Source: Patescibacteria group bacterium (GTDB lineage Bacteria > Patescibacteriota > Patescibacteriia > UBA10025 > JAHIVO01). From it: a DNA stretch of 64,000 nt. The notes beneath the pieces were generated by a model, which did not search any database, was not told the origin of the DNA, and was given only the letters and a program-made list of their open reading frames with translations. A program made the position numbers and the translations under genes. Below are positions 9,958 through 31,242 of the stretch, one piece after another. The DNA lies in contig JAHIVO010000001.1 in NCBI GenBank assembly GCA_018816445.1, positions 8,354-72,353 of the forward strand, read 5' to 3'. Each line of letters starts with the position of its first letter. Position 1 is the first letter of the stretch.

Positions 9958-10759
9958 GCTCGTTGATTTTATGCTTGTTCTTTTGGTAATATCTTAATGT
10001 GAAAAGCTTGATATGGATCATAAATTCATACCAAGCCATCATGCAGGCAATATAAAAACCATGCCAGCCATCTAGTAATCCTTTTTTGATAAAGTAGCGT
10101 CCAAAAAATTGTTTTGACATGTTTACACACATTTTTATAAAAATTATCCAATAACTTCTTGAACTTATTTTATTTATTCTTTCATACGAATCTAGGTTGG
10201 TATATTTTTTAAATCCCTCCAAAGTATCATTAACAGTAATATGTGAAAAATGAAGATGGGGAGATTTTAGTGTACCAATTTTGTATTTTTGATTATTATG
10301 TGGTATTAGTTTTTCATGAACAAGTATCTCCCCGTCCATGTGGAGTATTTTTTTATTGTATAATCTAGTATGGTATTGCGGATACCAATCACCGTGTTTA
10401 ATCCAGCGACCATAAAAAAAATCTAGGCACGGTACGTTATAGCCTACAAATTCAGCCATAGAATCTATATTTTTTAGCTCTTCTTTGAGATCATCTGGTA
10501 TAAACTCATCTATATCGAGCTGGAAAATCCAGTCATATTTAGCCTTTGAATTAGCTAAGTTTCTTTGTTTTGAATAACCCGGCCAGCAATTCTTATAAAT
10601 TCTGACATTTTTATACTTTTTCGCCAGCTCAACTGTCTTGTCAGTACTATAAGAATCAATTATAATAATATCATCGGAAATATCATAAATATTCTCAAGA
10701 CAACGTGAGATATTCAGTTCTTCGTTATAGGTAATTATACAGATTGAAAATTTTATCAT
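9905..10759 (-). CDS. GT2 glycosyltransferase
   Basis: 'FSICIITYNEELNI', 'IIIIDSYSTDKT' and 'LDIDEF'. Confidence 0.7.
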   Translation of the reverse strand: MIKFSICIITYNEELNISRCLENIYDISDDIIIIDSYSTDKTVELAKKYKNVRIYKNCWPGYSKQRNLANSKAKYDWIFQLDIDEFIPDDLKEELKNIDSMAEFVGYNVPCLDFFYGRWIKHGDWYPQYHTRLYNKKILHMDGEILVHEKLIPHNNQKYKIGTLKSPHLHFSHITVNDTLEGFKKYTNLDSYERINKISSRSYWIIFIKMCVNMSKQFFGRYFIKKGLLDGWHGFYIACMMAWYEFMIHIKLFTLRYYQKNKHKINELGDEHNIDLSFYDKTKK

Positions 10760-10892
10760 ATTGTTATTATCGAATATCCATTAATAGTGTGTAACTATAA
10801 AAAAGTATATCAGATTTTAAACTCATTGGAAACCTCGAGAGTTAGCACGGAAAAACGTACCAAAAAGAGACTCTTATACTTATCTCGCAAAA

Positions 10893-11861
10893 ATGAAAAA
10901 AACAACAAATATAAATAATTGTCCGATATGCAATAGTACATTAATTAATCGGGTAATTATTGCATATGATAAAACGATGCGAAGTCTTAGCTCATTATAT
11001 CCTTCAAATTTATTTTTTAAGGATTATAAAAAAATCTCGCTTCAAATCTATCAATGCCAAAGGTGTAGCTTTGCATTCTTGAATCCAAGATTATCAAGAG
11101 AGGGATTGAATCAATTATATGGGAATCTTTATAAAACAGTTTATTATGATGACAAAAGGCGTCATAAAGAATTCCAATATCAAGATTATTTTAAAAAACT
11201 AAAACATTTAAAAAAAGACGGCCCCGGGAAACTATTAGATTTTGGTTGTAATACAGGTGTATTCTTAAAGATTGCCCAAGATAATTGCTGGGACGTCATG
11301 GGTATAGAATTATCTTATCAAGCATCTCAGATAGCTAAAAAAAGGTTGGGAAATGATAGGATCATTACTGGTGCTATTGATGAATTAAAAAATCTAGACA
11401 TACAATTCGATATAATTTCGTTTTTAAACGTTCTCGAACATCTGCCAGATCCTAATTTATATATAAAAATTGCATCCAGAAAGTTATCTCCCGGCGGATT
11501 ATTATTTATCGTTGTTCCAAATTACGACAGTATCAGAAGAATTTTAATCGGTGAAAATTGGTCTCTCATTCTCCTAGAGCATATTAATTATTTCACTCGG
11601 GATTCCGTTGCGTATCTGGCATCTAATAATGGTCTAATTCTGAAACAAGGAGGTCCCATCGATTATGAAATATTTAACAGAGGATTTTTTGAAAAAATAA
11701 AAAAGATGTTTCGGAAAAATGAGGGCTCAAGTTATTCGTTTAGTTACGGACGCGATGCCTTAATAAAATTAGCATTCTTAGCATTAATAACTGATTTTGC
11801 GGGCCTGGCCATCAACCGCGGCGATTTTATTTATTATGTGATGGCTAAGAAATCCCTATAG
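10893..11861 (+). CDS. SAM-dependent methyltransferase with an N-terminal Cys4 zinc ribbon (NDP-sugar C-/O-methyltransferase-like)
   Basis: CPICNS…CQRCSF zinc ribbon, then 'LLDFGCNTGVFL' motif I and 'FDIISFLNVLEHLPDP'. Confidence 0.6.
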   Translation: MKKTTNINNCPICNSTLINRVIIAYDKTMRSLSSLYPSNLFFKDYKKISLQIYQCQRCSFAFLNPRLSREGLNQLYGNLYKTVYYDDKRRHKEFQYQDYFKKLKHLKKDGPGKLLDFGCNTGVFLKIAQDNCWDVMGIELSYQASQIAKKRLGNDRIITGAIDELKNLDIQFDIISFLNVLEHLPDPNLYIKIASRKLSPGGLLFIVVPNYDSIRRILIGENWSLILLEHINYFTRDSVAYLASNNGLILKQGGPIDYEIFNRGFFEKIKKMFRKNEGSSYSFSYGRDALIKLAFLALITDFAGLAINRGDFIYYVMAKKSL

Positions 11862-12572
11862 TTAATGTTTATTTATTATCGAAACCATACTACTGTCCCT
11901 GAATGGTACTGGTTCGGTAAAGGTATAATCAGGAAATCTTAACTTAATATCTTCCAAAGACCAAAAGTGTACATAAAAAAGATGTTTTTTACCAACTTTT
12001 TTAATTGGTGCCAAAATAAAAACGCCGTGATCAGCCAAACAATTTTTAACATTATTCAATGCAAAAGACAATTTAGAGTCTTTAACAATGTGTTGGATAA
12101 CGTCAATCATTAAAATTAGATTAAACCTACCGTTTATTTTGTCGGTACTGACATCCTTTTTCGTAAATTCGAAGTTGAGAAATTTTTCTTTTAGATTTGG
12201 AAACAGCGAATCGGTTATATCCAGTCCCGTATAATTTTTTACGCCTAAATCATAAAGCAGCTGGGCGTAGAAGCCATTTCCACAGCCGATATCCAAGACC
12301 GATGCTGATTTGAAGTCTATGTTTTGTTCTTGACATAAATCTACTACAACTTTGGCAGCCTCAGCATACATAATCTTATTATCCTGTTCAGGCAGACCTT
12401 CATCGCCCACTCCCCTAATAGCCATCTTGTATTTTGAGAATCTATCGTGCCAATACCGAGACGCATTGTAATCATCACCACTACCATATTTCATGGGTCC
12501 AATTATTAGTTTATAAATTACATTCTTAATAAAAACCAGGGGATTTCTAATAAATTTTGGTATGGAGTTCAT
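11862..12572 (-). CDS. Class I SAM-dependent methyltransferase
   Basis: 'VLDIGCGNGFYAQ' motif I and 'FNLILMIDVIQHI'. Confidence 0.7.
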   Translation of the reverse strand: MNSIPKFIRNPLVFIKNVIYKLIIGPMKYGSGDDYNASRYWHDRFSKYKMAIRGVGDEGLPEQDNKIMYAEAAKVVVDLCQEQNIDFKSASVLDIGCGNGFYAQLLYDLGVKNYTGLDITDSLFPNLKEKFLNFEFTKKDVSTDKINGRFNLILMIDVIQHIVKDSKLSFALNNVKNCLADHGVFILAPIKKVGKKHLFYVHFWSLEDIKLRFPDYTFTEPVPFRDSSMVSIINKH

Positions 12573-12600: not shown

Positions 12601-14469
12601 TTATTGAAATTCATAAATGAAATATTTTAGTTCATTTATTTTAGGAATAGCTGGAGGAAATTGAGTATCATCGTAAGTAACAAGTAGCCTAGTGAAATTT
12701 AATGAAAAATCATCAATTTTGTTTAGATTATCATTATTAAATAAATAATTAATATTGTCCTCGGAGTCATTATCAACAGAGGAAATTACATATATGTTTT
12801 TATTTGATGATTTATTTATATATTCTTTTATAGCTGAAATATCAATATAGGGAGTTTTTTCTTGATGATAAGCTGGCCAAATGATACCGTCTAAGCCATA
12901 GTGGTATTTTAATATGGCAGTGAATCTCCCAATTGTGTCATAATAATTTGTTGGCATAATTACAATATCGTTTGGAGTAAATTTATTTGCAATATTTGAC
13001 AATTGTTTGCCCTGGTTACGATTTTCTGAATAGAAAAAAATTTTAGATAAGAATATAATATTTAATAATAAAATAATTATTACTAAACTTATCGGTATTA
13101 TATTAATTTTATTGAATTTTTTTAATGCTTGGAATTCAATTCTTTTTATATCTACAATAACAATAGAAGCTAATAACATTACGTAAGGGATAAAGATAGC
13201 CCAATATCTTCTAAGGGCCCAGGGTTGATCCCTGGCGATTAAAGGATCGTAAAGATAAAGAAAACTTGGCAAAACAATTATAGTTATTAAAAAAATAATA
13301 AATTTATATTGTCTTTTGTAGAGACCAATTAAAGAAAGTATGATATAGGGAAGAATTAGATAGAAAAATAAAATTGAGAATACATAATTTATATCACCAA
13401 GTTTATCAACCTCTTTGATCCTATATGTACTTGTACTAATAAAATTTTCTTGTATAAAAACATTATCTGCCATAGTAGGAATGATTTTCGTAGAGAAAAC
13501 TACCAATGGGCGTACAACAAATCTAGCTACATGCATAATTTGAGCGTAAGAGGGGGGCAGAAAAAATACTATATATCCGATAAAAATACAAATCAAAAAT
13601 AAAATAACTAGCAGAATATTTTTATTGATTTTTTGATTGGGCCATTTATTTTTTTGATAATTATTTATTATAATTATTACTATCAAAAAGGTAAAAAGAT
13701 GGAAAATTCCCTCAACCCTTACAAAAAGTGTGACTAATATTGGAATTAAACTAGATAATACAAACGAAAGATTTTTATTATAATATCCTTTTATTAGTAA
13801 ATATATGCCAAACCAAAAGAGAAAAAGCATAATATTTTCGGAAAGTGTTTGACGGCTGAAATATATTGTTAAGTAATGGGAAGCAAAAAAGAGTACGAAT
13901 AAAATTCCCGCCCATTTATTTTTTATTGATTTTCCCAAAAAATAAAAGATACAAAGGGACAAAAATAGAAGTAAACTATTTGCCAAAAAGAGCCCTAATA
14001 GTCCGCCCCACGTATAAAATAATGCTAAATATACTGGATATCCAATAATTCTACTTAATACCAATTGATTACTGAAGGTTGATTTAATTGATCCACTATA
14101 GCTAAAGCTTGGATCAAGATTAATTTTTCCCTCGTGAGATAAAATTACCGCATTAGCTACATAACCACCATAATCCCTGGTAGCACCAAGGTTTTCATAA
14201 TAAAAAAGACCATTAACAATTGAAAATATCAGTAATAATAATATTAGAGCAACTTCAAATTTTATAACTTTATTATTACTTTTTTTACGATACCTTTTGA
14301 AATGATACCAGATTAAAAATAATATAAATATTCCAATTATTATTGGCGCGATCCATTGTGCAAAGATTTGAAAAACTTCAAAAAAAGAGCTTATTATGCC
14401 GGCGATTATCAGTCCAATTACAAAAAATGATATTTTTACAATATTTTTTTCAATAATATTTTCATTCAT
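12601..14469 (-). CDS. GT-C-like polytopic membrane glycosyltransferase (PMT/ArnT-like); paralog of 46458..48122
   Basis: About 12 or more predicted TM helices over 622 aa. The N-terminal half resembles 46458..48122 (the FYFLGKSIKNK / FYLLIKEVFNKK region). Confidence 0.45.
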   Translation of the reverse strand: MNENIIEKNIVKISFFVIGLIIAGIISSFFEVFQIFAQWIAPIIIGIFILFLIWYHFKRYRKKSNNKVIKFEVALILLLLIFSIVNGLFYYENLGATRDYGGYVANAVILSHEGKINLDPSFSYSGSIKSTFSNQLVLSRIIGYPVYLALFYTWGGLLGLFLANSLLLFLSLCIFYFLGKSIKNKWAGILFVLFFASHYLTIYFSRQTLSENIMLFLFWFGIYLLIKGYYNKNLSFVLSSLIPILVTLFVRVEGIFHLFTFLIVIIIINNYQKNKWPNQKINKNILLVILFLICIFIGYIVFFLPPSYAQIMHVARFVVRPLVVFSTKIIPTMADNVFIQENFISTSTYRIKEVDKLGDINYVFSILFFYLILPYIILSLIGLYKRQYKFIIFLITIIVLPSFLYLYDPLIARDQPWALRRYWAIFIPYVMLLASIVIVDIKRIEFQALKKFNKINIIPISLVIIILLLNIIFLSKIFFYSENRNQGKQLSNIANKFTPNDIVIMPTNYYDTIGRFTAILKYHYGLDGIIWPAYHQEKTPYIDISAIKEYINKSSNKNIYVISSVDNDSEDNINYLFNNDNLNKIDDFSLNFTRLLVTYDDTQFPPAIPKINELKYFIYEFQ

Positions 14470-14474
14470 TAGTA

Positions 14475-15980
14475 TTATACCTTCTCAATTATTGCTTCTG
14501 AAATCGGATGACCATCAAAAATATTAGATTGTTCAATATTCATTAGCTTGAATATTGTAGGCGCAATGTCTATAATATTGTTCTGCTTTAATTCCATATT
14601 TGTTTTAATATCCGGTCCGTAGGAAATGAATATTCCGTCAAGGCTGTGATATTGAAATTTTCCTTTAACAAAAGCAGGACCCATAATACTTTTTATCAGA
14701 TATTTTGAAGAATATAATATTATATCCGGCCCATTTCTCACCTGTCTGCCAGAATATATTTTTTGTGAATCTGCTACAACGTCAAATACACGATCCTTAT
14801 TGTCAGGTCCTTTTATCTTGGTGAGTTTATCAATAATCTCTTGTTTAATTTTTTTATATTCATTATCATTGTCAATAATTCCATTTGAAAATCTGCCTTT
14901 ACGGTTTAGATAGATTAAGTTTGATAAGCTATATACAGATGAATTAAGTGTATCAATGCCAATATCCTGGTCTACATATATTGGTAATATTTTTTTAATT
15001 TTGTCATATATTTTTTTCGCAAACTTGAATATAGTGGGATATTTCCACATAAAGGAAGTCAGACCAGACAGATTTAAATTTAATGCTTTTTTTGCAGATT
15101 TATCTCTGCTTTCTGAAATTTTACCGAAATCAATATGCTTTTTATTTTTTGATTTAAATTGCAGATAATTTTCTTTAGCCAGCCATTCATTCAAAAAGAA
15201 TACTCCTTTCAAATCAGAAAAACCGTGATCAGACATAACTAGTAAGTTAGTATTTGCCGGCAAGTTATCCGCGAACCACCCAAGGTAGCTATCAATATCT
15301 TGGTAAATATTTATTACTGACTGATTCTTTTTAAGATCTTGATTAATTAAATCATGATATTTTGTATGTTGTATCCAGTCTGTACCGCTAAAAAGGACGA
15401 AGAAAAAATCCCATGGTTTATTTTTGAATAGTTTTTGTGCACATTTAAACCTTGTCTGTTCAATGTCACGTATCTCATGAATATGCTCTTTCAGTTTACG
15501 TTCTTTTTTTCCTTCTGGAGCTAATTTATATTTGGTGAACTCAGGGATTTCATCAATTAATTTTTTAGGAAAAACAAAGTCATCTCCGCGCGTGAGCAAA
15601 CTTGTTATAACTATTTCAGATAATTTTGGGGGAAAAGATACAGGTAAATTAACTAAAATACATTTTTTTCCAATTTCATCCAACTGTTCGTAAAAGGTTT
15701 TTACTTTTATTGAATTACTTGAAATAGGTGCATAGTCGTCAAGATCATTCTCTGGCGTCACGAATTCAAAACAACCGTGCTGACCAGGATTTGCACCCGT
15801 TGCAAATGACGTCCAGGCAGGTGCAGTAACTGGGGGTAGGGTAGTTCTAAGGGAGCTGAATGATCCATTTTCCTTAATTTTTTTTATATTGGGCAAGAAA
15901 CCCCCGTCAATTAGTTTATTGATCAATTGCCAATTTACTCCGTCTAGGCCTATGACTATTACTTTTTTACTATTATTCAT
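14475..15980 (-). CDS. Alkaline-phosphatase-superfamily protein (type I phosphodiesterase / nucleotide pyrophosphatase, PF01663-like)
   Basis: 'VIVIGLDGVNW' and 'LPPVTAPAWTSFATGANPGQHG', the metal-ligand and catalytic Thr/Ser region of NPP/AP-family enzymes; 'SDHGF' later. Confidence 0.6.
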   Translation of the reverse strand: MNNSKKVIVIGLDGVNWQLINKLIDGGFLPNIKKIKENGSFSSLRTTLPPVTAPAWTSFATGANPGQHGCFEFVTPENDLDDYAPISSNSIKVKTFYEQLDEIGKKCILVNLPVSFPPKLSEIVITSLLTRGDDFVFPKKLIDEIPEFTKYKLAPEGKKERKLKEHIHEIRDIEQTRFKCAQKLFKNKPWDFFFVLFSGTDWIQHTKYHDLINQDLKKNQSVINIYQDIDSYLGWFADNLPANTNLLVMSDHGFSDLKGVFFLNEWLAKENYLQFKSKNKKHIDFGKISESRDKSAKKALNLNLSGLTSFMWKYPTIFKFAKKIYDKIKKILPIYVDQDIGIDTLNSSVYSLSNLIYLNRKGRFSNGIIDNDNEYKKIKQEIIDKLTKIKGPDNKDRVFDVVADSQKIYSGRQVRNGPDIILYSSKYLIKSIMGPAFVKGKFQYHSLDGIFISYGPDIKTNMELKQNNIIDIAPTIFKLMNIEQSNIFDGHPISEAIIEKV

Positions 15981-15994
15981 GCTGAATATGTGTA

Positions 15995-17458
15995 TTAAAT
16001 GTCAGTTTTTTTATTAATATTTTTACCAGTAAAAAAATTCCTTAGTATTAATATATCATTTTTTGAGAATTCTTTAAACATTACTAAGGTGATCAGATAT
16101 ATCAATACTAGTATTGAATATAATGCTAATATTTTAAAATTAGAAAAATCCAATTCGGTAATCAATACCTTACAAACTATTCCAACTACTAAGGAGGCAA
16201 TAATAATTTTAATAATGGAAATCCAGTTAGTGATTTTATTAATTTTTTTCCAAACGTAAATATATGAAAACAACAAACCAATCACCCCAACGAATGTTGT
16301 TGCCCAGGCAGCACCATTTATGCCATACTTTGGTATTAACAGCAAATTAGCGGCTATACTGGCAAGAATAAGCATGATAGTAAGGTATAATGACATCTTT
16401 TGCTGGCCTATAGAAATAATAATTGTCATCATAACCCTGGTTAAGGCTAACAATGACATGCCAAATACCAGAATACTAAAGGACGTTATGGCAGGGTTAT
16501 ATTTGTCGGAAAATATTAACGGAATTAAATTACCTGCGGTTAAGCTAGCAATAATAGTTAAAGGTCCAAGAATAATCAAACTTAGTCGGATGGCTTGCTT
16601 AATATTTTCCCTAACTTTTTCAATAAGGTTCTTATAATAATAGCCTGAAATAATTGGCAGTAAACTGATAACAAAGCCAGCTAAAATTATATATAAAAAT
16701 CTAGATAAAGTAGTAGCGGAATTGTAATAGCCAGCCGAATCTTGATTATTAGAAAAATACTTTACAAGAAATAAATCTATACTCATCAATAAAGGAAAGC
16801 CAAAAGCATAAAAGGAAATAGTAATAGTTGTATTAAATAACTTTTTTCCGGGAAAATGATCTAGTCCATTTTTAATTTTTGTAAACGACATAGCGGTAAT
16901 TAAAGATACTAGGGCGGCAAGAAAATACGCTAATAATATTGCATCTAAGTCTAAGCCCATTAGTAAAAAGATTACAACTAATACCAGTTTACTTATAGCG
17001 GCAATAATAGCAATTAATGATTGTTTATTAAAACGTTTTAAGCCATTTAAAACGCCAATATATACTGTTCTGATGCCGTAGAGCGGTATTAATAGAGCGG
17101 AAAGTCTAATGTAGTATGCCATTTGAGGATCACCAAACCCCCGGCTGATCAGATCGGCTAAGCCGTAATAAATCAAGGCAATTATCGGAGTTAATATGAT
17201 CTCAATCTTTAAACTTTTTCTTAAAATTGTTTTTGCTGCAGTTTCCTTCTCAGCGATACTGCGGCTAATTCCTTGAAAAAATCCTGAGGTTAGTATAGTA
17301 TTAAGAAGATTTATCAGATATATAACAATTCCAAAAGTTCCATATAAAGCTGGATCAAAAAAACGTCCTATTAATATCTGTATAATATAACCGCTTCCCA
17401 TAAAAATTAGATTTGCAAAAGTAAGGTAAGCGGCGCCTTTAAATAATAAATTATTCAT
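15995..17458 (-). CDS. Wzx-type oligosaccharide flippase (MOP/polysaccharide biosynthesis protein family)
   Basis: 487 aa with about 12-14 TM helices and polysaccharide-biosynthesis-protein family architecture. Confidence 0.65.
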   Translation of the reverse strand: MNNLLFKGAAYLTFANLIFMGSGYIIQILIGRFFDPALYGTFGIVIYLINLLNTILTSGFFQGISRSIAEKETAAKTILRKSLKIEIILTPIIALIYYGLADLISRGFGDPQMAYYIRLSALLIPLYGIRTVYIGVLNGLKRFNKQSLIAIIAAISKLVLVVIFLLMGLDLDAILLAYFLAALVSLITAMSFTKIKNGLDHFPGKKLFNTTITISFYAFGFPLLMSIDLFLVKYFSNNQDSAGYYNSATTLSRFLYIILAGFVISLLPIISGYYYKNLIEKVRENIKQAIRLSLIILGPLTIIASLTAGNLIPLIFSDKYNPAITSFSILVFGMSLLALTRVMMTIIISIGQQKMSLYLTIMLILASIAANLLLIPKYGINGAAWATTFVGVIGLLFSYIYVWKKINKITNWISIIKIIIASLVVGIVCKVLITELDFSNFKILALYSILVLIYLITLVMFKEFSKNDILILRNFFTGKNINKKTDI

Positions 17459-18024: not shown

Positions 18025-18309
18025 TTAGAGGTATCCCAAGCTTTTTAATCTTTCCTTAACTGATTCGTCATCATCTTTACTAAATTTTTTATCTGTATCT
18101 TGTTTTGGTTGCTTAAGAACTTCTTCTAACACAAAATTAACAAATCCCTCAACAGAAGAAAATTCACTTGAGGATTTTATTTTTTTTTGAATTTGTTGAA
18201 ATATTTTTTCGTCCAGTTTAATTGAATTCATTTTTTTATAATTAATGCTTATTAAATTATTATTTACAATAACCTCAGAAAACCAAATTCCAAATACGTT
18301 CGTGAGCAT
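18025..18309 (-). CDS. Small ribbon-helix-helix (CopG-like) protein with a CysD-like C-terminal tail; paralog of 21202..21420
   Basis: 'NSIKLDEKIFQQIQKKI…SSEFSSVEGFVNFVLEEVL' has RHH strand-helix-turn-helix topology. The C-terminus 'KKFSKDDDESVKERLKSLGYL' resembles the other RHH protein and the CysD C-terminus. Confidence 0.5.
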   Translation of the reverse strand: MLTNVFGIWFSEVIVNNNLISINYKKMNSIKLDEKIFQQIQKKIKSSSEFSSVEGFVNFVLEEVLKQPKQDTDKKFSKDDDESVKERLKSLGYL

Positions 18310-18344: not shown

Positions 18345-19586
18345 TTAATTAAGTGTGATAATGCCACCTGCTACAACTGCGCCATTTCTGATTAAAATAA
18401 ATCTACCTAACTCCGGAATATTATTAAAATCTTCAATTATTACTGGATTATCAGCTTTGAGTTTGACTGTAGCAATTTCCATCTCTTTAAGTTCATTAGA
18501 TTTGTCTTCAATAATCTTAAGTGAAGATGAATTTATGCGATTGGTTATAGATTCTGCGAACACACCAATTTCCTGAGTGGCGCATTGTAGTGTGAGATTC
18601 TCTTTAATGCTTAATGGCTCTTTTGACATCCAAAATAGATTTCCCACTACCTCGTCGGTTGATTTTGGTTTATTATCACTTTGGGTGGCAATATCACCAC
18701 GATCTACAAAAATTGGGTCTATTAATGTTATTCCAATATTTTCTCCGGCTGAAGCCGATTCCAGCTGTTGGTTCATTTTTTCTATTGTTTTAATTGATGA
18801 TTTATTACCTTTTGGTAAGAAGGTTACTTCATCGCCTTTTTTAATTGTGCCAGATGCAATTTGTCCGGCAATAATGCGTATTTCGTCAAATTTATATAAA
18901 TCCTGGATTGGCATTCTAAATGGCTTATTGGAGAGATTTTTTGTTTCCTTGAACGTTTCCAGTGCTTCTAAAACTGTTTTATCTTCGTACCAATCCATAT
19001 TATCTGATTTTTTTGCAATATTATCTCCTTTGAAAGCTGAGATTGGAATAATGAAGGTAGGAGTTATTTTAATTTTTTTAAGAAATTCCAGCAACTCTTT
19101 TTTTACTTTTATGTAATTTTCTTCTTTATATTTTACCTTGTCCATTTTATTAATTACAACGATTACTTGTTCCAGACCCAACAAGCTTAAGAATTTTGCA
19201 TGTCGCTTTGTTTGCTCTTGGATACCTTCATTGGCATCTACGATTAAAATTGCTGCTTCGGCCTGTGAGGCACCTGTTATCATATTTTTTGTAAATTCAA
19301 CATGGCCTGGTGCATCAATGATGACATACTCCCTGGCATCAGTTTTGAAAAATATTTGTGCAGTGTCAATAGTAATATTCTGGTCTCTTTCTTCAATCAT
19401 GTGATCCATAAGATAAGCGTATTCAAACTGCTTGCCTTGTTGTTTGCAGATTGTTTTTACCTCAGATATTTTTTCTTCTGTTATTGATTTTGTATCACAT
19501 AATAGTCGGCCAATAAGTGTTGATTTTCCATGATCAACATGTCCTACAAAAACAATTTTAAATTTTGATTCTTTTTGATTCCTCAT
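18345..19586 (-). CDS. cysN: Sulfate adenylyltransferase subunit 1 (CysN GTPase; no APS-kinase domain)
   Basis: 'VGHVDHGKSTLIGRLL', 'NITIDTA', 'IIDAPGH', 'NMITGASQAEAAILIVDA', 'QTKRHA' and 'NKMDKV' reproduce CysN/NodQ G1-G4 blocks. At 413 aa there is no room for a CysC domain. Confidence 0.85.
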   Translation of the reverse strand: MRNQKESKFKIVFVGHVDHGKSTLIGRLLCDTKSITEEKISEVKTICKQQGKQFEYAYLMDHMIEERDQNITIDTAQIFFKTDAREYVIIDAPGHVEFTKNMITGASQAEAAILIVDANEGIQEQTKRHAKFLSLLGLEQVIVVINKMDKVKYKEENYIKVKKELLEFLKKIKITPTFIIPISAFKGDNIAKKSDNMDWYEDKTVLEALETFKETKNLSNKPFRMPIQDLYKFDEIRIIAGQIASGTIKKGDEVTFLPKGNKSSIKTIEKMNQQLESASAGENIGITLIDPIFVDRGDIATQSDNKPKSTDEVVGNLFWMSKEPLSIKENLTLQCATQEIGVFAESITNRINSSSLKIIEDKSNELKEMEIATVKLKADNPVIIEDFNNIPELGRFILIRNGAVVAGGIITLN

Positions 19587-19623
19587 ATTTTTTTAATTTT
19601 GATATTTAATATTTCAATTAGTA

Positions 19624-20439
19624 TTACATGTATCCTAATTTTCTCAAGCGCTGCATAACATAAGCAGCTTCTTTGTCTTGAGAGCGGCCAGCTCTTTCGG
19701 AGCTTTTTGATTTTTTAATTTCTTCGATAATTTTATCAACAGTATCAGCGTCTGATTTAATTGGCTTTGTATTTGGTTTGCATCCGAGGCTCCGATATCG
19801 TAAGCCATTTTTGGCAAAGTATAGTTTATTAATAGGCAGATTTTCTCTTTTTATATATTTCCAAACATCCACTTCAGTCCAATGGAGCAAAGGATGGATT
19901 CTAACATGCGTCTGATCGTCTGAAATTGACCTGTATTGGTTCCAAAGTTCGGGGGGCTGGTTCTTGTAGTCCCAGTTAAATTTTTGGTCTCTAGGAGAAA
20001 ATACGCGCTCCTTAGCCCTAATACCATGCTCATCCCGTCTAATTCCTAGAATTAGCGCCTTAAAATCATGTTTAGCCATGCATTGCTTTAGTGCATTAGT
20101 TTTAAGTTCATTACAGCACGTAAAGCCATCTCCTTCGCCGCACTTAACGCCCCTGGCCATAGCTTCTTTATTCATAGCAATTATTAGATTTAACTTCCAT
20201 TCTTTGGCATATTTATCTCTGAATTCATACATTTCTTCAAACTTAGCTCCAGTGTCAATGTGAATAACAGGGAAGGGGATGTGGCCAAAAAAAGATTTAC
20301 GGCATAATTGGATTAAAGTAGTTGAGTCTTTTCCAATAGACCAGAGAACAGCTATTTTTTTAAACTGATTATAAGCCTCACGGATGATGTAAACACTTTT
20401 GTTTTCTAGTTCATCTAAATGATTCATATTATTTGACAT
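19624..20439 (-). CDS. cysD: Sulfate adenylyltransferase subunit 2 (CysD, PAPS-reductase-fold ATP pyrophosphatase)
   Basis: 'LWSIGKDSTTL' PP-loop, 'IHIDTGAKFEEMYEFRD', and the C-terminal '…SERAGRSQDKEAAYVMQRLRKLGYM' matching the conserved CysD tail. Confidence 0.85.
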   Translation of the reverse strand: MSNNMNHLDELENKSVYIIREAYNQFKKIAVLWSIGKDSTTLIQLCRKSFFGHIPFPVIHIDTGAKFEEMYEFRDKYAKEWKLNLIIAMNKEAMARGVKCGEGDGFTCCNELKTNALKQCMAKHDFKALILGIRRDEHGIRAKERVFSPRDQKFNWDYKNQPPELWNQYRSISDDQTHVRIHPLLHWTEVDVWKYIKRENLPINKLYFAKNGLRYRSLGCKPNTKPIKSDADTVDKIIEEIKKSKSSERAGRSQDKEAAYVMQRLRKLGYM

Positions 20440-21193
20440 TAAAATAACTAATTAGTCCATTAAATACATCTATAGGTTGGTTAACCTTAAATGGAATATT
20501 TTTTGCGATGGCAATGGCATCTGGGTGATGATCGCCTTTCAATTCATTGCCTGTTGAGGTAATTTTTGGTAAAGTCTGAACTGGAGCTTTGTCATAATCT
20601 GTAAATCCATGATCAGAAAGAATCAATACTTTTTCATCAAGTTCAAAAATTTTATTTACTGCTTTATCAATTTTTATATAATAATCTATTAAGGATTCTC
20701 CTCCCCAGTGTAAATGGGACATCTTATCCAATGCGGTATATACAGCAATAAATAGTTCTGGTTTACTATCTCCTGTAACAGAGACAATTTTATTGGTAAT
20801 TTCTGTGATTTCAGTATTCAGCTCTTCTTGAGTAAGGGGGACACCATAACCAGGAGGATTAAAGTAAATATTATAATTATAAGGTGGTACAATAAAAGGA
20901 ATGTTCAATGCTTTAACCGATATATTATTTCTACTGAGAATATCCCATATAAAATCAACTTTTACGTCATTCCGAGTTTGGACTTCACCGTCTTTAACAA
21001 AATCCAGGTGGTTATGTTCTTCGGGTAGTTTTCCAGAAAACATTGAACACCAAACTGAAGCAGACCATGGTTTTTGTTGCAGGCTGATTGTATAATTATC
21101 ATGCTGTGACAATATTTTTTTAAAGGTGGGCAATTTGTCAATATTGGGTTTGATAATATCCCAAGTAGCACCGTCAAGCCCAATTATAAACAT
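20429..21193 (-). CDS. Short alkaline-phosphatase-superfamily (type I phosphodiesterase/NPP-like) protein
   Basis: 'FIIGLDGATWD', 'SASVWCSMFSGKLPEEH' and 'LSDHGF'. Overlaps the cysD start by 11 nt. Confidence 0.55.
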   Translation of the reverse strand: MFIIGLDGATWDIIKPNIDKLPTFKKILSQHDNYTISLQQKPWSASVWCSMFSGKLPEEHNHLDFVKDGEVQTRNDVKVDFIWDILSRNNISVKALNIPFIVPPYNYNIYFNPPGYGVPLTQEELNTEITEITNKIVSVTGDSKPELFIAVYTALDKMSHLHWGGESLIDYYIKIDKAVNKIFELDEKVLILSDHGFTDYDKAPVQTLPKITSTGNELKGDHHPDAIAIAKNIPFKVNQPIDVFNGLISYFNVK

Positions 21194-21201
21194 AGAACTT
21201 T

Positions 21202-21420
21202 TTATAAATAATCTAAATTTTTTAATCTATCGCGTACTCTTTTTTCATCTTCTTTGGTAAATCCCTTTTTTTCTTCATAGGAAGAAGAAACTAATTGTCT
21301 TAGCACATAAATTACATAACTGGAAACAGAATGAAAACCCGTACCGCTGATTTTTTCTTTTAATTTTTCATTAAGTTGAACTGGAATAGAGATGGTAGTA
21401 TATCTTTTTTCATTTTTCAT
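21202..21420 (-). CDS. Small ribbon-helix-helix (CopG-like) protein with a CysD-like C-terminal tail
   Basis: 'TTISIPVQLNEKLKEKISGTGFHSVSSYVIYVLRQLV' is a canonical RHH. C-terminal 'KGFTKEDEKRVRDRLKNLDYL'. Confidence 0.55.
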   Translation of the reverse strand: MKNEKRYTTISIPVQLNEKLKEKISGTGFHSVSSYVIYVLRQLVSSSYEEKKGFTKEDEKRVRDRLKNLDYL

Positions 21421-21619
21421 AGGTTTTTTAACTAATAATTGAATATGTTTATAATATAATTAATTAATTATATAGTCAAGCATTTTAATTAAATATAATG
21501 ATAATATTTGATTAATTCCTAATATTAGCTAAATATATATTTTACTAAGATATAATCTTGGTTATTGAATCGAAACTAATGTATAATTTATCTATAATTT
21601 TCAATGAAATATTTATTAT

Positions 21620-23155
21620 ATGATTAAGAAATCAACACTTTTTTTTACGGTATTCTCCATTTTGTTTGTATTGTTATGCTTCTATTCTTTTTTTATTGAT
21701 TTATACCCACAAAAAAGCAATACAGATTTATGGACACATTTGGCAATTATCAATGAATTAAAAGTTAATGATTATTCAGAAGTTAATGCGCCATTTTTTA
21801 CTGATGGAGAGAATGATCCACGTAGTGGGATATATTTAACTGGTATAGCTTTAGTGTCAAAAATATTTAATATTTCAACTATAAATACATATTTGTTTTT
21901 TGGAATAATTAATATAATATTTTTTCTAATATGCAGCTTTTTATTTAGTAAACACTTTTTAAAAAGTAAATATAATTATTTATTTCCATTATTACTAATT
22001 TTTTTATGGGGTCCCAGTAGGAATATTTATGCAGGCATGTTTTCCTTAAATGAAATTTTATGGATAGGTCCATTCTATCATTTTTTTACTTTCAGTTTAT
22101 TACTATTGTCATTGATTTATGCTGACAAGCTAATTGAGCAAAAAAGAAGCGTATCTTCTTATTTATTAGTGATAATTCCAGTATTCGTGTTATATAATAC
22201 ACATATGCTGACAGGAATTATTTTTTTTGTTGCTCTATACGCCCTGATCACTGCAAAAATAATAAATTATAAAAAAATAACAAGAGAACTTATTTTTTTA
22301 TTTAGTATTCCATTCTTATGTTTTTTATTAAATTTTTTATGGCCCTTGTATGATCAATGGAATTATTTTTTTAATAGGGGTGCAGTAAATGCCATACAAG
22401 ACGTTAATAATTCGGAAACCTATAGAGGCTTAGATTATTATTGGAAATACATTAATTCATGGATTTTGGTTGGTGGTTTAAGTTTGCTAGGAATTATTTT
22501 TAGTCCGAAAAACAAAAAATATTTTACATTTATAATATTATTATTTATTATTACTTTGATCATAATATTTTCAGGCTTAACACCTTGGCCTATACAATTT
22601 TATTGGAGATTCTTCCCTTTAATTGTCTTGGCCGGCGTTATGGGCTGGATGTCCCTTTTTCAAATTATTAATAAAAGGTTAATATTCATCCTTATTGCAC
22701 TTATTATAATAATTGGGCTACTTTTCACGATGAATAAAATGGTTGTATTTAAAGATTGGGAGCCATATACATATCAGCAATCCCAATATCAATCTGAATC
22801 AATATCTTATGATATTTTAAATAATATATCAAAAAAAAGTGTTGTTTTTACGGATGAAGTTGAATCACATATTTTATCAGGATTAACAGGGTTAAACGTT
22901 GTTGGCGTCAGACCATCTCATGCTGGCTTTAATCAAACTGATATACAAAATCAAGGCTACGATAATATTAAGGCAGCATACGAAGAACCTGAAAAAATTG
23001 ATGAACTTATCCCAAAATATCAAATAACACATATTTTATTAAAAAGAAAAATATCAGAAAAAAACTTTTTATTATCTCAGTATGTTAATAATAAATACAG
23101 GTTGATTGATATTAGTGATGATTTTTATTTGTATTACGTTGGTAATGACTTATGA
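21620..23155 (+). CDS. Polytopic membrane protein (Wzy/GT-C-like, uncharacterised)
   Basis: More than 10 TM helices over 511 aa with a C-terminal soluble domain. Sits in the GT-rich locus. Confidence 0.4.
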   Translation: MIKKSTLFFTVFSILFVLLCFYSFFIDLYPQKSNTDLWTHLAIINELKVNDYSEVNAPFFTDGENDPRSGIYLTGIALVSKIFNISTINTYLFFGIINIIFFLICSFLFSKHFLKSKYNYLFPLLLIFLWGPSRNIYAGMFSLNEILWIGPFYHFFTFSLLLLSLIYADKLIEQKRSVSSYLLVIIPVFVLYNTHMLTGIIFFVALYALITAKIINYKKITRELIFLFSIPFLCFLLNFLWPLYDQWNYFFNRGAVNAIQDVNNSETYRGLDYYWKYINSWILVGGLSLLGIIFSPKNKKYFTFIILLFIITLIIIFSGLTPWPIQFYWRFFPLIVLAGVMGWMSLFQIINKRLIFILIALIIIIGLLFTMNKMVVFKDWEPYTYQQSQYQSESISYDILNNISKKSVVFTDEVESHILSGLTGLNVVGVRPSHAGFNQTDIQNQGYDNIKAAYEEPEKIDELIPKYQITHILLKRKISEKNFLLSQYVNNKYRLIDISDDFYLYYVGNDL

Positions 23156-23168
23156 TGAAGCAAGTCAT

Positions 23169-24719
23169 TTACTTGCTTAGAGTTACGTCGATTGCATTAA
23201 TTTTTACTAAGCTTTGATTTTTCTGTAAGTCGGGAATGTTAATAGAAAAAATTATTTTTCCTTCATAAAAGTAATCACTATCTAGATTAAAACTGGTTTG
23301 TGATATATAATTATTTTCAAATTCTTGAGGCGGATTATAACTTGATAAAAGATATTCATAATTTGAAATAGCATCAATTTCTATAGTATTAAGTTTTTTC
23401 ATCCCCAATGGGGTTGGATTAAAAAATGAGTTTTCAGAAAAAGAAAAATATCCAGTGATGGCATCATTATTTTGGACTAACAAATGATTTTTTTCAAGCA
23501 CTATCTTATTTAAAGTATCACCGGAAAGATTAACAATTTTTGGGGCTTCTTCAAGTCTGGTAGAATCTAAAATTAAAATATGGTCATCATTAATTGAAAT
23601 TGTTTGATTTGAAGCGGGGATATGCCAAGCTGGAATTTTTATGGACAAAGCATTAGTATAAATTGAATGTTGATTAATTGATTCGGAAATATCGTCGCGT
23701 ATCATAACCGAATTTGCAATTACCAAGAGAGGTTGGTTAAGGATAATTTTTGTGAGAGAATCAGCTGAACCAGTTTTAATTTTATATAAACCACTTGGCA
23801 TGTTTTGAATGCTGATAATATCAGATTGTTTTGGCCCTAATTCATTATTAGCACTTATATTGCCGTCATCAGTAATTACTTGATTGCTAATAGCTTTATC
23901 GGTTGAACTTGTAATTGTAGTTTCTAAGGGATCCGCACCTTCATAATAATTAAAATCAACTTTTATTACTTCTAACTGTAGATCACCAGGTGAAGTAAGA
24001 TATGTGTAGGCGTTAAATGTCCCTTCTATGTATGGCGTAAAAGTTCTATCCTGTGTGAATGTTTTGCCCATAAGTGATTGAGCAACCATTTCTGACTGAT
24101 CTAGATTTGAATAATAATCCGCAATAGCATAATTGATTATAGGTTCTGAATTATTATCAGGTGATATTATATTATATACTTCCCTTGGTGGATTGGATAA
24201 AAAATCTTCAATAGAATTATATTTTTTGTTTTTTTGCCATAATGAAAGATCATCAGAAATGATATTTTCCCATGATAATTCGTTTAAATTAGGATTGAAT
24301 ATTGGTTTATATGAAATTGTATTATCAATATTTTTAATTCCGAGTAGAATATTGTTTGACCCATGGATGCTATAGTCAAGTTTAATATCTACCTTATTGA
24401 TTATATCTTCCTTTACGCCTGAAGGTAGTTGAATTTCAAATTCAGTTAAATCATTATTGATGATTTGGTTATCTATGCGATATTGTTGGCTGCCGTTTTG
24501 ACTAATGTATGACACATCTGATATTGGGGAAATAGGGGATATTAGTTGACTATTATCTGGATATGAATATAAAAAATGGACTTGATCCGAAAAAAATAAA
24601 AAATTTTTATTAAAAAGGCCAATAAATAGGATGATAGTAAAAATAATAATTACTTCTAAAATAATTCTTTTTAAAGTTGAAATTTTATCATTTTTTATAT
24701 AAAAGTTTGAAAAATTCAT
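23169..24719 (-). CDS. N-terminally anchored exported protein of unknown function; paralog of 48187..49728
   Basis: Single N-terminal TM (IILEVIIIFTIILFIGLF) and a large extracytoplasmic domain. Shared blocks with 48187..49728 include 'WENIISDDLSLWQKNKKYNSIEDFLSNPP' ~ 'WTWITKDDLILFQKSDKLYESIDYFLDNLP' and 'GYFSFSENSFFNP' ~ 'GFFFFSSENSFDP'. Confidence 0.5.
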   Translation of the reverse strand: MNFSNFYIKNDKISTLKRIILEVIIIFTIILFIGLFNKNFLFFSDQVHFLYSYPDNSQLISPISPISDVSYISQNGSQQYRIDNQIINNDLTEFEIQLPSGVKEDIINKVDIKLDYSIHGSNNILLGIKNIDNTISYKPIFNPNLNELSWENIISDDLSLWQKNKKYNSIEDFLSNPPREVYNIISPDNNSEPIINYAIADYYSNLDQSEMVAQSLMGKTFTQDRTFTPYIEGTFNAYTYLTSPGDLQLEVIKVDFNYYEGADPLETTITSSTDKAISNQVITDDGNISANNELGPKQSDIISIQNMPSGLYKIKTGSADSLTKIILNQPLLVIANSVMIRDDISESINQHSIYTNALSIKIPAWHIPASNQTISINDDHILILDSTRLEEAPKIVNLSGDTLNKIVLEKNHLLVQNNDAITGYFSFSENSFFNPTPLGMKKLNTIEIDAISNYEYLLSSYNPPQEFENNYISQTSFNLDSDYFYEGKIIFSINIPDLQKNQSLVKINAIDVTLSK

Positions 24720-29496: not shown

Positions 29497-29687
29497 ATTT
29501 TTTTACTATAGTTTATTTACCAGTAATTTTAATAAAATTTTTATTATCCTTGGTTATTCCAGATTTTCTCCAAACCTTTATACCATTTGCATCTTTATTG
29601 ATTGGTATTGTCATTAGTAGTGTAATAATTCTATTTGTATTATTCGCTATTGTACAGATTGGTAAACAGAATAATAAGGATATTTAA
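29493..29687 (+). CDS. Small hydrophobic ORF (two TM); coding status uncertain
   Basis: 64 aa, start overlaps the upstream stop, fully hydrophobic. Confidence 0.25.
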   Translation: MNFFTIVYLPVILIKFLLSLVIPDFLQTFIPFASLLIGIVISSVIILFVLFAIVQIGKQNNKDI

Positions 29688-31242
29688 TGCTTGGATTTTC
29701 GCGGTAATCTTTTGGATCAAGCAGGTCGCTTTCGTAAATTTTTTCAATAATGTTTTGGTTTTCAAATCTGCTGAAATCAGCTTCATCAAAATATTCTCTA
29801 GTACGTGCAGAAATGATTATATAATCGTATTTAGTTGTTGATAAATAGGCAGTGAATTCGTCATTAGTTCCAAAAAACAATTGTTGAACTGGCTCCCATT
29901 CAATAAACTTATTTCTAGTTAAATTTGTGTGTTCGTAGTTATAAGCTGGTTTCATATCTGCAATGGTGGTTAATAAGTACATGGTAGATGGATCAGAGAG
30001 GACAATTTTATTTGAGAATTTATCTTTAATTTTCAATTGCTCGTTTACGTTTTCCCTGGATAAACCATATTTAATAGGTGTAATATTGTTCGCCAGTAAT
30101 AAAGTAATAACTGGGTAGAGAGAGGAAAGTACCAAAATAATTAATACAATTATATTAGACAAATAGTTATTCCTTGATATTAAACGAATTATTTTATAGA
30201 ATCCATAGGCGCCGATAATGCCTAAGGCTGGAATTAATAAGCTAATTGCCCTGCTGGCAAAAAAGTTATAATTTATTGAAGTTTGATAAGCTAGTAATAA
30301 AGAACAGATCAGCCATGGAAAAATTACTAAAAATTTTATTTGCGTACCGCACGCTTTCCTGAGATTAAAAAGAAATATTAATAATCCGGCAATTACAAAT
30401 ATTAAAAAGAATGAATGAGTAATACTTAATAGAGGAGCTAGAAAATTTAATGGAATATTATTTTGAGAGTCAGTAAAAACCTTGAAAGAAGGATCGGATG
30501 TATCGATTGGAAACGCTTGGTTGATGAAGGATGGTAAATTTAATAAAATAAATAATAAAATTGCGATTGTAATACATATTATTATAAATAATGATTTCGA
30601 CCGTTTTTTATGAATAATAAAAAATGGAATAGCAATGGCACAAATTATTGTCGCTGCGTAAATGGCATTAATATGATGAAATAATATTAAGGAGAGCGTT
30701 AATAACGAAAAAATGATATAGTCTTTCAGGGCGTGACTATTGTTCCGAAAAATTTTAACTAGTAAAAATATCAATACCAAAAAGAGGGTTAGGACTATGT
30801 TTCTTGGCAAATAGTAATAAAAAATCTCCTGATTAAACAAAAAAATCGCAAAGATCGCTATTATACTTATAACTTTGTTATTTAAGAGAATATTTGATAA
30901 TATATAGATTGATAAAATTAATAAGATTATGAGAATTATATTCAGTATAGACATTGAAATAGGGAGTTCTAAGTCTGTGATTTGAGAAAAATAACTGCTC
31001 AATACATGAAAAAGGGGAGTGAAGCTATATAAACTTGTAGTTTCGCTAGTCGGCATATCTCCCGGAATGCTGCCAGAATTAGATATTTGATTGGCGAACC
31101 AGGTATGGAATAATAAGTCGCCTCCCTCCTGGTAAGGAAATAAAAATAGTATATAACTGTAGATTGTGATTATTAAAATAATCAAGGTAATTAAAATAGC
31201 GGTAGGAAGGTGTTTATTCTTAATAATTGATTGTATAGGCAT
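29647..31242 (-). CDS. Large polytopic membrane protein (GT-C/Wzy-like)
   Basis: 531 aa with more than 12 TM helices and a C-terminal soluble domain. Confidence 0.45.
   Translation of the reverse strand: MPIQSIIKNKHLPTAILITLIILIITIYSYILFLFPYQEGGDLLFHTWFANQISNSGSIPGDMPTSETTSLYSFTPLFHVLSSYFSQITDLELPISMSILNIILIILLILSIYILSNILLNNKVISIIAIFAIFLFNQEIFYYYLPRNIVLTLFLVLIFLLVKIFRNNSHALKDYIIFSLLTLSLILFHHINAIYAATIICAIAIPFFIIHKKRSKSLFIIICITIAILLFILLNLPSFINQAFPIDTSDPSFKVFTDSQNNIPLNFLAPLLSITHSFFLIFVIAGLLIFLFNLRKACGTQIKFLVIFPWLICSLLLAYQTSINYNFFASRAISLLIPALGIIGAYGFYKIIRLISRNNYLSNIIVLIILVLSSLYPVITLLLANNITPIKYGLSRENVNEQLKIKDKFSNKIVLSDPSTMYLLTTIADMKPAYNYEHTNLTRNKFIEWEPVQQLFFGTNDEFTAYLSTTKYDYIIISARTREYFDEADFSRFENQNIIEKIYESDLLDPKDYRENPSIKYPYYSVYQSVQ

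Follow-up and report, generated by a model that had tools for sequence, protein, structure and literature searches.

Sulfation is taught as dependent on 3'-phosphoadenosine 5'-phosphosulfate (PAPS), save for aryl-sulfate exchange. Sulfate activation of the CysDN type is put to glycoconjugate sulfation by NodP-NodQ, for Nod factors, and by CysD-CysNC of Mycobacterium tuberculosis, for sulfolipids (PMC4373884). CysDN without the downstream enzymes of assimilation has already been noted in ANME-1 archaea, where a partner of the alkaline phosphatase (AP) superfamily was not noticed (PMC6286981). Two proteins of that superfamily, Agl30 (VNG1056C) and Agl31 (VNG1057C) of Halobacterium salinarum, are encoded in an N-glycosylation cluster and are N-glycan sulfotransferases in vivo by genetic evidence, in work that did not address the sulfate donor (Zaretsky et al. 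2025, PMC11980604). Agl7 (HVO_2046) of Haloferax volcanii is likewise reported to contribute to the sulfation of a hexose carried on dolichol phosphate. The subject of this article is a cysD-cysN pair in 64,000 nucleotides of DNA ("the window") from a Patescibacteria group bacterium (assembly GCA_018816445.1, contig JAHIVO010000001.1, positions 8,354 to 72,353). The pair belongs to a conserved, probably horizontally mobile module made up of small ribbon-helix-helix (RHH)-type proteins, a short AP-superfamily enzyme (short AP), CysD, CysN and, often, a TauE-type permease. It is likely that the module serves glycan sulfation rather than assimilation. An earlier note on this DNA, made from the sequence alone, had preferred the same reading, which is supported by the company of the cysDN block (a Wzx flippase, a second AP protein, a polytopic membrane protein and a glycan locus of about 55 kb) and by the same context elsewhere.

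The ATP sulfurylase subunits

CysD, the catalytic PP-loop subunit of heterodimeric ATP sulfurylase, is encoded at 19624..20439 on the minus strand (271 amino acids), and CysN, the GTPase subunit, at 18345..19586 on the same strand (413 amino acids), starting 37 nt downstream of cysD. Both had been named from their motifs in the earlier note; the two open reading frames (ORFs) are found at these positions, and both identities are confirmed by comparison with family models and with the Escherichia coli proteins. CysD matches PF01507 (E = 2e-44) and scores 356.7 bits on the NCBIfam CysD model NF003587, whose cut-off is 195. It falls under the cut-offs of TIGR02039 (270.7 versus 396.6) and NF009214 (279.1 versus 413) because a missing 29-residue insert splits the match into two stretches. 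Apart from that deletion it aligns with E. coli CysD over the full length at 40% identity, and the one relative of solved structure, which is also the best PDB match, is the CysD subunit in the Pseudomonas syringae CysD:CysN complex (1ZUN, E = 4e-67). The PP-loop motif WSIGKDS occupies residues 33-39, with SIGKDS as its core, and the catalytic cysteine motif of CysH (ECGLH) was not found in the protein. The C-terminus, MQRLRKLGYM, is an invariant tail whose E. coli counterpart reads ...KKRQGYF. Mean column identity in the CysD clade is 76% across the candidate phyla radiation (CPR), DPANN and others. Two invariant stretches, 135-165 and 251-271 (the latter with the tail helix, 253-267), are modelled in the monomer at pLDDT values below 50, as would be expected of partner-dependent elements.

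CysN passes the TIGR02034 CysN model (367.5 bits, cut-off 336.1) and fails all elongation-factor cut-offs, scoring 380 and 354.5 on EF-1alpha models with cut-offs of 502 and 540.1; bacteria are not known to use EF-1alpha. Over 401 residues its identity to E. coli CysN is 35%, and the GTPase motifs read from the translation are intact (G1 GHVDHGKS, G3 DAPGH, G4 NKMD). Its alignment covers positions 20-430 of the 632-position bifunctional CysNC model, so the protein has no kinase domain. The earlier note's statement that a 413-residue CysN carries no fused CysC thus stands, only the GTPase part of the model being covered. By their sequences the two genes encode a genuine GTP-driven ATP sulfurylase, predicted to form adenosine 5'-phosphosulfate (APS); taken by itself, the pair is a new member of a known family. 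Two CysN homologues elsewhere are longer (646 residues at 9964-11904 of locus L066 and 648 at 2130-4076 of L051, in the numbering of the loci surveyed below); their extension of about 240 residues is C-terminal in L066 and N-terminal in L051 and shows no match to E. coli CysC.

A short AP-superfamily enzyme linked to CysD

The short AP gene (20429..21193, minus strand) encodes 254 amino acids, a minimal, cytoplasmic member of the AP superfamily in the branch of the nucleotide pyrophosphatases/phosphodiesterases (NPPs; PF01663). The end of the gene and the start of cysD share 11 nt; from this gene arrangement, short AP and CysD are predicted to be translationally coupled and are probably physically associated. 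The family is tight, at about 253 residues, with 40-75% identity between the domains of life. The window protein passes the Pfam threshold of PF01663, and its fold is predicted to be that of the AP superfamily, NPP-like (pLDDT 95), with nucleotide pyrophosphatases/phosphodiesterases as the closest folds. Sequence search of the PDB gave no match; profile search gave marginal ones only, iPGM being the best, and what aligns with iPGM, PhnA and NPP is the pair of D..H and DHG motifs.

Thirty-eight positions are invariant in an alignment of 34 short AP sequences from both domains. Among them are the seven ligands of a two-metal site (D7, D156/H160, D194/H195 and D221/H222) and the nucleophile, Ser44, as well as residues specific to the family (N17, H60, H62, R74 and W83/D84). 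The nucleophile is a serine at the N-terminus of a helix, where NPPs typically have threonine. Across a library of 1.84 billion representative sequences, short AP matches 27 clusters at E <= 1e-30. Because the 2,728 representatives that come next, at E <= 1e-10, are about 450-550 residues long and resemble the long AP of the window (see below), short AP is, by sequence, a compact offshoot of that uncharacterised family.

The long AP gene lies further along the same strand (14475..15980, minus strand; 501 amino acids). Its product matches PF01663 at 123 bits, has a threonine nucleophile in the motif PPVTAPAW and an extra C-terminal region, and is 22% identical to short AP; it is a second candidate enzyme for sulfuryl or phosphoryl transfer. 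Both window proteins match PF01663 only, and PF00884, the family of the "sulfatases", is absent from the window but present in related loci.

Absence of a linked kinase, reductase or sulfotransferase

Pfam models were scanned against all window ORFs of at least 100 amino acids, and the survey took in a further 10 kb to the left on the 157,685-bp source contig, for 74 kb in total. The scan gave no match to APS kinase (PF01583) or to sulfotransferase families, and no PAPS/APS reductase in the window other than CysD itself. E. coli CysC found nothing better than E = 0.14 by tblastn against the window, and with CysH and CysI as queries the sole CysH match was again CysD. A motif scan of the window found neither the paired 5'-phosphosulfate-binding and 3'-phosphate-binding motifs of sulfotransferases nor an APS-kinase P-loop. 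The 10 kb to the left hold only GtrA, a family 2 glycosyltransferase (GT2) and housekeeping genes, with no CysC, CysH or sulfotransferase. These searches bear out the earlier report that the 64 kb lack an APS kinase, a PAPS reductase and a canonical sulfotransferase. The same holds in other phyla: with E. coli CysC at E < 0.01 (BLASTP/tblastn), none of about 90 related loci has a linked APS kinase, none has a classical sulfotransferase, and assimilation genes are never linked to the module. A hidden kinase or sulfotransferase was also sought by tblastn with E. coli CysC, CysH and CysI together with motif regular expressions, and none was found in the searched loci.

Distribution of the module

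Relatives of short AP were sought in one genome per species. They occur in at least 454 genomes, and 80 loci were analysed. Archaeal carriers include Hydrothermarchaeota, Aenigmat-, Nano-, Woese- and Iainarchaeota, Altiarchaeales, Heimdall/Asgard, ANME-1/Methanophagales and Methanosarcinales; the bacterial ones include many Dehalococcoidia, Patescibacteria and Saccharibacteria. CP070662.1 (832,879 bp), CP040089.1 and MTMF02000009.1 are complete or near-complete genomes that have the module. Neighbours were identified by ORF calling and BLAST, and a locus was counted as evaluable when it extended 3 kb or more to either side of short AP, as 40 loci did. A CysD-type gene lies within 3 kb of short AP in 36 of these 40, and the 37th (L040) is a fusion of the two; CysN is found in 24 and a small RHH-type ORF in 29. 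AP-CysD fusions, with short AP N-terminal and the CysD-type domain C-terminal, fall into two groups that are 39% identical, one of about 570 residues in three clusters (P0241-P0243) and one of about 470 residues in two (P0262, P0264). Examples are found at 5420-7132 of L040 (Ca. Nanohalalkaliarchaeum halalkaliphilum) and at 1170-2585 of L092 (P0264).

The neighbourhoods are those of glycan synthesis. Four diverse ones (Hydrothermarchaeales, a JGI AglB contig, Chloroflexota and Aenigmarchaeota) all place short AP beside a PF01507 gene in a glycan or N-glycosylation context. De novo clustering of neighbours returned Wzx, GT2 and GT4 glycosyltransferases, sugar-1-phosphate nucleotidyltransferase, UDP-glucose dehydrogenase and DUF1616 as recurrent genes, with AglB (STT3) and Alg13/14 joining them in other phyla. 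Wzx lies within 10 kb in 21 related loci, and in L011 the order cysN-Wzx-long AP is that of the window. TauE/SafE-family anion permeases occur in 17 loci, always within 5 kb, and PF00884 "sulfatase" proteins are co-located in related loci. Whether relatives carry cysDN in their glycan loci, a check that the earlier note had proposed, is answered by these findings: the module sits beside glycan genes across phyla. The same note had called ATP sulfurylase unusual for CPR bacteria, and this needs qualifying, since the module recurs in metagenome-assembled genomes (MAGs) of several CPR lineages (Patescibacteria, Kerfeldbacteria, Doudnabacteria and Saccharibacteria). Locus L010 (CAZJUO010000020.1), labelled "uncultured Gammaproteobacteria bacterium", has the gene order of the window and a CysD 94% identical to that of the window, and is probably a mis-binned CPR contig. 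An unusual CysD is found in a Nanobdellati MAG (L078, 11-1981): its 656 residues are split between about 233 and 604 by some 370 unrelated residues, possibly an intein.

The linkage was also followed in reverse, starting from close homologues of CysD. A Doudnabacterium has CysD-CysN-long AP, the AP being 30% identical to the long AP of the window, and a Micrarchaeon has RHH-CysD-CysN-divergent short AP-TauE. With the linkage to CysD, the fusions and the demonstrated role of Agl30 and Agl31 (PMC11980604), the Doudnabacterium arrangement supports the earlier proposal that the AP-superfamily proteins are the candidates for sulfuryl transfer. The third neighbourhood, in a Phycisphaerae MAG, has no AP and is taken up below; the AP partnership marks the CPR, DPANN, other archaeal and Dehalococcoidia version of the system and not every CysD of the clade.

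A CysD variant without CysN

In Hydrothermarchaeota and some others the partner of short AP is a CysD variant whose identity to E. coli CysD is about 22% and to which the CysD and CysH models give nearly equal scores. The variant lacks both the catalytic cysteine of CysH and the central insert of CysD, has another insert instead, and keeps the CysD tail. In all nine loci with the variant CysN is missing within 10 kb, though the AP and an RHH gene are kept. Instances of the variant are L002 11820-12665, L004 10763-11563, L012-L031, and L090 10001-10972 and 11518-12468. That the PF01507 gene of Hydrothermarchaeota is a CysH-type reductase was rejected, given the missing cysteine motif and the retained CysD tail; the model scores are ambiguous. 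Cultivated haloarchaea were considered as hosts of the full module and set aside, Halalkalicoccus jeotgali having two paralogues of the variant and no AP or RHH gene nearby. Locus L002, a Hydrothermarchaeales MAG, carries a HepT/MNT toxin-antitoxin pair (10900-11687) between short AP and the CysD variant.

A cultivated DPANN archaeon, Ca. Nanohalobium constans (L091, CP040089.1, 982-10969), carries an RHH-tail gene and a CysD variant in a glycan locus together with Wzx, UDP-glucose dehydrogenase, a PF00884 sulfatase-family gene and a divergent 287-residue PF01663 gene. This organism is a possible experimental system.

Small RHH-type proteins with a CysD-like tail

The module of the window includes two small genes whose products end like CysD. 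RHH-tail protein 1 (21202..21420, minus strand; 72 amino acids, from a gene call on the Logan contig copy) has the tail ...RVRDRLKNLDYL, which resembles the CysD C-terminus. RHH-tail protein 2 (18025..18309, minus strand) is an ORF of 94 amino acids whose homologous part starts at an internal methionine at about 18228 and runs for 68 residues, with the tail ...SVKERLKSLGYL. The wider family numbers 63 ORFs in 50 loci (L010-L089), with a median of 74 residues, an N-terminal RHH half, an acidic linker and a C-terminal amphipathic helix; further copies are L007 1343-1558, L094 5766-5987 and L091 9773-9982. PF01402 (RHH_1) is matched by 15 of 33 members (best E = 6.8e-7), and others match RHH_5, Arc, RelB or VapB. 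The two window copies match no Pfam or NCBIfam model singly and were assigned through the family alignment. Tandem paralogues of two types occur in Dehalococcoidia, ANME-1 and one Halobacteria MAG.

The motif [VI][KR]x[RK]L[RK]xLGY[LIMFW] stands at the C-terminus, or within 5 residues of it, in 60 of the 63 ORFs; the tail sometimes runs on for 1-5 residues, mostly acidic, after LGY and the hydrophobic residue. All intact CysD proteins, the variants included, have [KR]LRxLGY[MFWC] as their last residues, and the similarity between the two kinds of protein spans about 30 residues. The shared tail may be a case of mimicry that links a DNA-binding protein to an enzyme complex. CysN as the sole docking partner of the tail was rejected, RHH-tail genes persisting in the nine CysN-less loci described above, and because they persist there the docking site is likelier to lie on CysD itself or on the AP. 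The RHH proteins probably regulate the operon and may compete for or report on the docking site; because they carry the C-terminal docking helix of CysD, they may also act as sensors of the enzyme complex and its state. A DNA-binding protein with the tail of an enzyme would be an unusual regulatory design.

Proposed route and its alternatives

Computation gives the gene identities, the absence of a linked kinase, the synteny, the fusions, the intact active site and the glycan context. As an explanation of the whole, we give about an even chance to a kinase-free module whose APS is consumed by short AP for glycan sulfation. GTP hydrolysis on CysN would drive CysD to convert ATP and sulfate into APS, and the co-translated short AP would then use APS directly, bypassing APS kinase. 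Ser44, on its two-metal centre, would take up the sulfuryl group with departure of AMP, and a hydroxyl of a sugar precursor carried on a nucleotide or a polyprenyl phosphate would then receive the group, on the cytoplasmic side; alternatively the group might be relayed to a larger AP paralogue (long AP here, PF00884 proteins elsewhere) that would give glycan specificity. Wzx would flip the sulfated unit outward. From sequence we infer that APS is the donor and that a sulfuryl group, not an adenylyl or phosphoryl group, is transferred; the acceptor and a regulatory function for the RHH proteins are proposed on the same footing. Immediate use of APS would pull the very unfavourable sulfurylase equilibrium, and because it would do so, both the AP-CysD fusions and the CysN-less CysD variants would be explained.

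The stronger form of this proposal is that short AP founds a class of APS-dependent, PAPS-independent sulfotransferases acting through a covalent sulfo-serine on a two-metal AP fold, physically coupled to a CysD-type sulfurylase and in two lineages fused with it to give a machine of two or three proteins, spread horizontally among CPR, Dehalococcoidia, DPANN, ANME-1, Hydrothermarchaeota and Asgard, accompanied by docking-helix RHH regulators and serving as the donor pathway for archaeal AP sulfotransferases. We advance it tentatively, at somewhat below even chances. If true, sulfate would reach glycans by a second route, and the module would account for the "orphan" CysDN kept by ANME-1 and by many CPR and DPANN organisms of reduced genome, offer a possible source of sulfate donor to the archaeal AP-superfamily sulfotransferases, and be a way for tiny symbionts to put negative charge on their surfaces. 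A compact, kinase-free enzyme set would also be of potential use in biocatalytic sulfation.

Several observations weigh against direct transfer from APS by short AP. NPP-type enzymes normally attack phosphorus and not sulfur, and by analogy with them APS would be hydrolysed to AMP and sulfate; the precedent of Agl30 and Agl31 holds at the level of the superfamily only (PF00884 against PF01663). The high conservation of short AP could fit a universal small substrate, pyrophosphate (PPi) or adenosine 3',5'-bisphosphate (pAp) equally with a glycan. No sulfate transporter, TauE-type or otherwise recognisable, was found in the 74 kb surveyed. Cultivated haloarchaea commonly have the CysD variant by itself, without AP and outside glycan loci. 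The Phycisphaerae MAG (L095, 6001-9075) has CysD-CysN without AP, and the DHH/DHHA1 (NrnA-like) gene next to the pair suggests that this organism uses the usual PAPS route; because this pair stands without it, the AP is not strictly needed by the CysD clade. Lastly, a UDP-sulfoquinovose-synthase-like gene (NF041015, 420 bits, cut-off 575) lies beside the module in some archaea, together with a 421-residue PF01663 protein (L002/L016 13244-16393, L042 4608-7371, L024 8377-9531), which suggests that some archaeal versions may feed a sulfite/sulfonate route and not O-sulfation.

Short AP might instead be an accessory hydrolase, a pyrophosphatase or nucleotide pyrophosphatase that pulls the sulfurylase equilibrium, with transfer carried out by long AP, by PF00884 paralogues or by an unlinked enzyme. 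The fold of short AP is closest to just such enzymes, its cross-domain conservation suggests a universal small substrate, and fusion and synteny fit this role as well as they fit direct transfer; fusions of ATP sulfurylase and pyrophosphatase occur in some eukaryotes. Of 20 well-flanked loci, 8 have another AP-superfamily gene no more than 8 kb away, and the PF00884 type has genetic support as a sulfotransferase, but the other 12 have none within that distance. Cells, moreover, already own an inorganic pyrophosphatase, so that a strictly linked and even fused one would be unusual, and the invariant H60, H62, R74 and W83/D84 would point to a substrate more elaborate than PPi. On balance this explanation is unlikely.

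It is considerably less probable that sulfation follows the conventional PAPS route, with cysC and a sulfotransferase elsewhere in the genome and short AP as a pAp phosphatase, an analogue of CysQ/NrnA. The NrnA-like neighbour of the Phycisphaerae CysD is of a known pAp phosphatase type, and AP-superfamily enzymes are good phosphomonoesterases. Yet cysC, the usual companion of cysDN, is missing from all of about 90 loci, in contrast to the AP, found in about 92%, and there would be little point in fusing a phosphatase for a by-product to the enzyme that opens the pathway. Small genomes are the rule in CPR and DPANN, and 74 kb that include a whole glycan locus show neither kinase nor sulfotransferase.

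We hold it just as improbable that cysDN serves assimilation or sulfonate synthesis, APS being reduced to sulfite, by a reductase that is unlinked or not recognised, for cysteine or for sugars of the UDP-sulfoquinovose type, so that the glycan context would stand for a C-S sugar and not for O-sulfation. The sulfoquinovose-synthase-like gene is accompanied by thioredoxin next to the module in Hydrothermarchaeales (L002), in L042 it forms one co-directional operon with the module, and the CysD variants score alike on CysD and CysH models. The window, however, has no sulfoquinovose-synthase-like gene, thioredoxin, APS/PAPS reductase or sulfite reductase, and CysD and its variants lack the CysH cysteine motif and keep the CysD tail; sulfate assimilation is not expected in CPR. 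Adenylation of an oxyanion other than sulfate, with the AP transferring a phosphorus group so that the modification is not sulfate, would suit PF01663 enzymes, which by default are phosphoryl or nucleotidyl transferases, but is very improbable given the full-length alignment at 40% identity to E. coli CysD, the authentic CysN partner, the TauE/SafE-type sulfur-oxyanion permeases adjacent in 17 loci and the co-located PF00884 sulfatase-family genes.

Layout of the locus and its glycan context

The module opens a co-directional block on the minus strand in the order RHH 1, short AP, CysD, CysN, RHH 2, Wzx, long AP and a 622-residue membrane protein. A sigma-70-like promoter (21451..21479, minus strand; TTGACT, 17 nt, TATTAT; 10 of 12 matches) lies about 30 nt upstream of the first RHH gene and is the putative start of the transcription unit; it is a consensus match only, in an AT-rich region where promoter-like matches barely exceed the shuffled expectation (80 found, 63.6 expected). 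No terminator-like site was found on the minus strand from this promoter to position 11500. Operator repeats were sought upstream of the first RHH gene, where AT-rich repeats are many and none is convincing. Downstream of the module are the Wzx-type flippase (15995..17458, minus strand; PF01943, PF13440, MurJ-like) and, as the last large gene of the block, the polytopic membrane protein (12601..14469, minus strand; 622 amino acids, no Pfam match), which, at a guess from where it lies and how hydrophobic it is, might be a glycan enzyme of the GT-C-like or polymerase type.

The glycan locus extends from about -1.2 kb to 55.3 kb in window coordinates. It encodes short-chain epimerases/dehydratases (SDR family), two UDP-glucose dehydrogenases, DegT aminotransferases, RmlABCD, methyltransferases, many GT2 and GT4 enzymes, two Wzx flippases and a GT-C/STT3-like protein, and the surroundings of cysDN are thus those of glycan biosynthesis and export that the earlier note had described. 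Bacterial markers (L9, a MurA-like enzyme, CtpA and PilMNO) stand at the right end of the window; they support a CPR origin, as does an NCBI protein of identical sequence that is assigned to a "Patescibacteria group bacterium". Scans of the window for tRNAs and with Rfam gave no match.

Other genes of the locus deserve mention. A DUF1616 protein (46000-46455, minus strand) adjoins a 554-residue GT-C protein (46458-48122, plus strand) that matches both PMT_2 and STT3, and DUF1616 recurs directly after short AP in the Dehalococcoidia loci L006 and L039. Window ORFs without a Pfam match are those at 12601-14469, 21620-23155, 23169-24719, 29647-31242 and 48187-49728. The products of 23169-24719 (minus strand) and 48187-49728 (plus strand) are paralogues of about 515 residues, 25% identical, with no family match; 21620-23155 (plus strand) encodes a 511-residue polytopic membrane protein, likewise without a family match. 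The genes at 23169-24719 and 21620-23155 keep their place beside the module in the closest relatives, L010 and L011.

Comparison with known systems

With the CysD-CysN of E. coli and P. syringae (1ZUN) the window pair shares orthologous subunits, PP-loop and GTPase motifs, adjacent genes and a CysD tail in ...GY(F/M). It differs in lacking an assimilation context (cysDNC or cysH/cysIJ), in a CysD without the 29-residue insert, in a CysN of 413 residues against 475, in its partner, an AP-superfamily enzyme in place of APS kinase, and in the RHH genes that flank the pair. The parallel drawn in the earlier note with NodPQ and mycobacterial CysDN is sound as regards dedicated glycan sulfation, but not as regards chemistry: in those systems a fused APS kinase makes the PAPS that classical sulfotransferases use, whereas the window module has no linked kinase. 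No APS-dependent or AP-fold sulfotransferase linked to CysDN was found in the literature, and the module, with its linked or fused PF01663 enzyme, its lack of a kinase and its tail-sharing RHH genes, is as far as found undescribed.

Agl30 and Agl31, which sulfate lipid-linked sugars on the cytoplasmic side, resemble short AP in belonging to the AP superfamily and in being encoded in a glycan locus, and one of them is soluble, as short AP is. They differ in being of the PF00884/arylsulfatase type and about twice as large, and they are not reported next to cysD; short AP is of the PF01663/NPP branch, with a serine nucleophile and two metals. The Xac NPP, ENPP1-7, PafA/PhoK and phosphonoacetate hydrolase are 11-17% identical to short AP, which is cytoplasmic, about 130 residues smaller than these enzymes, and has serine in place of threonine as well as invariant residues of its own; NPPs, PafA/PhoK and phosphonoacetate hydrolase are hydrolases acting at phosphorus. 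EptA/MCR-1, LtaS and iPGM show the AP fold at work as a ping-pong transferase through a Ser/Thr-linked intermediate, and iPGM, like short AP, uses serine.

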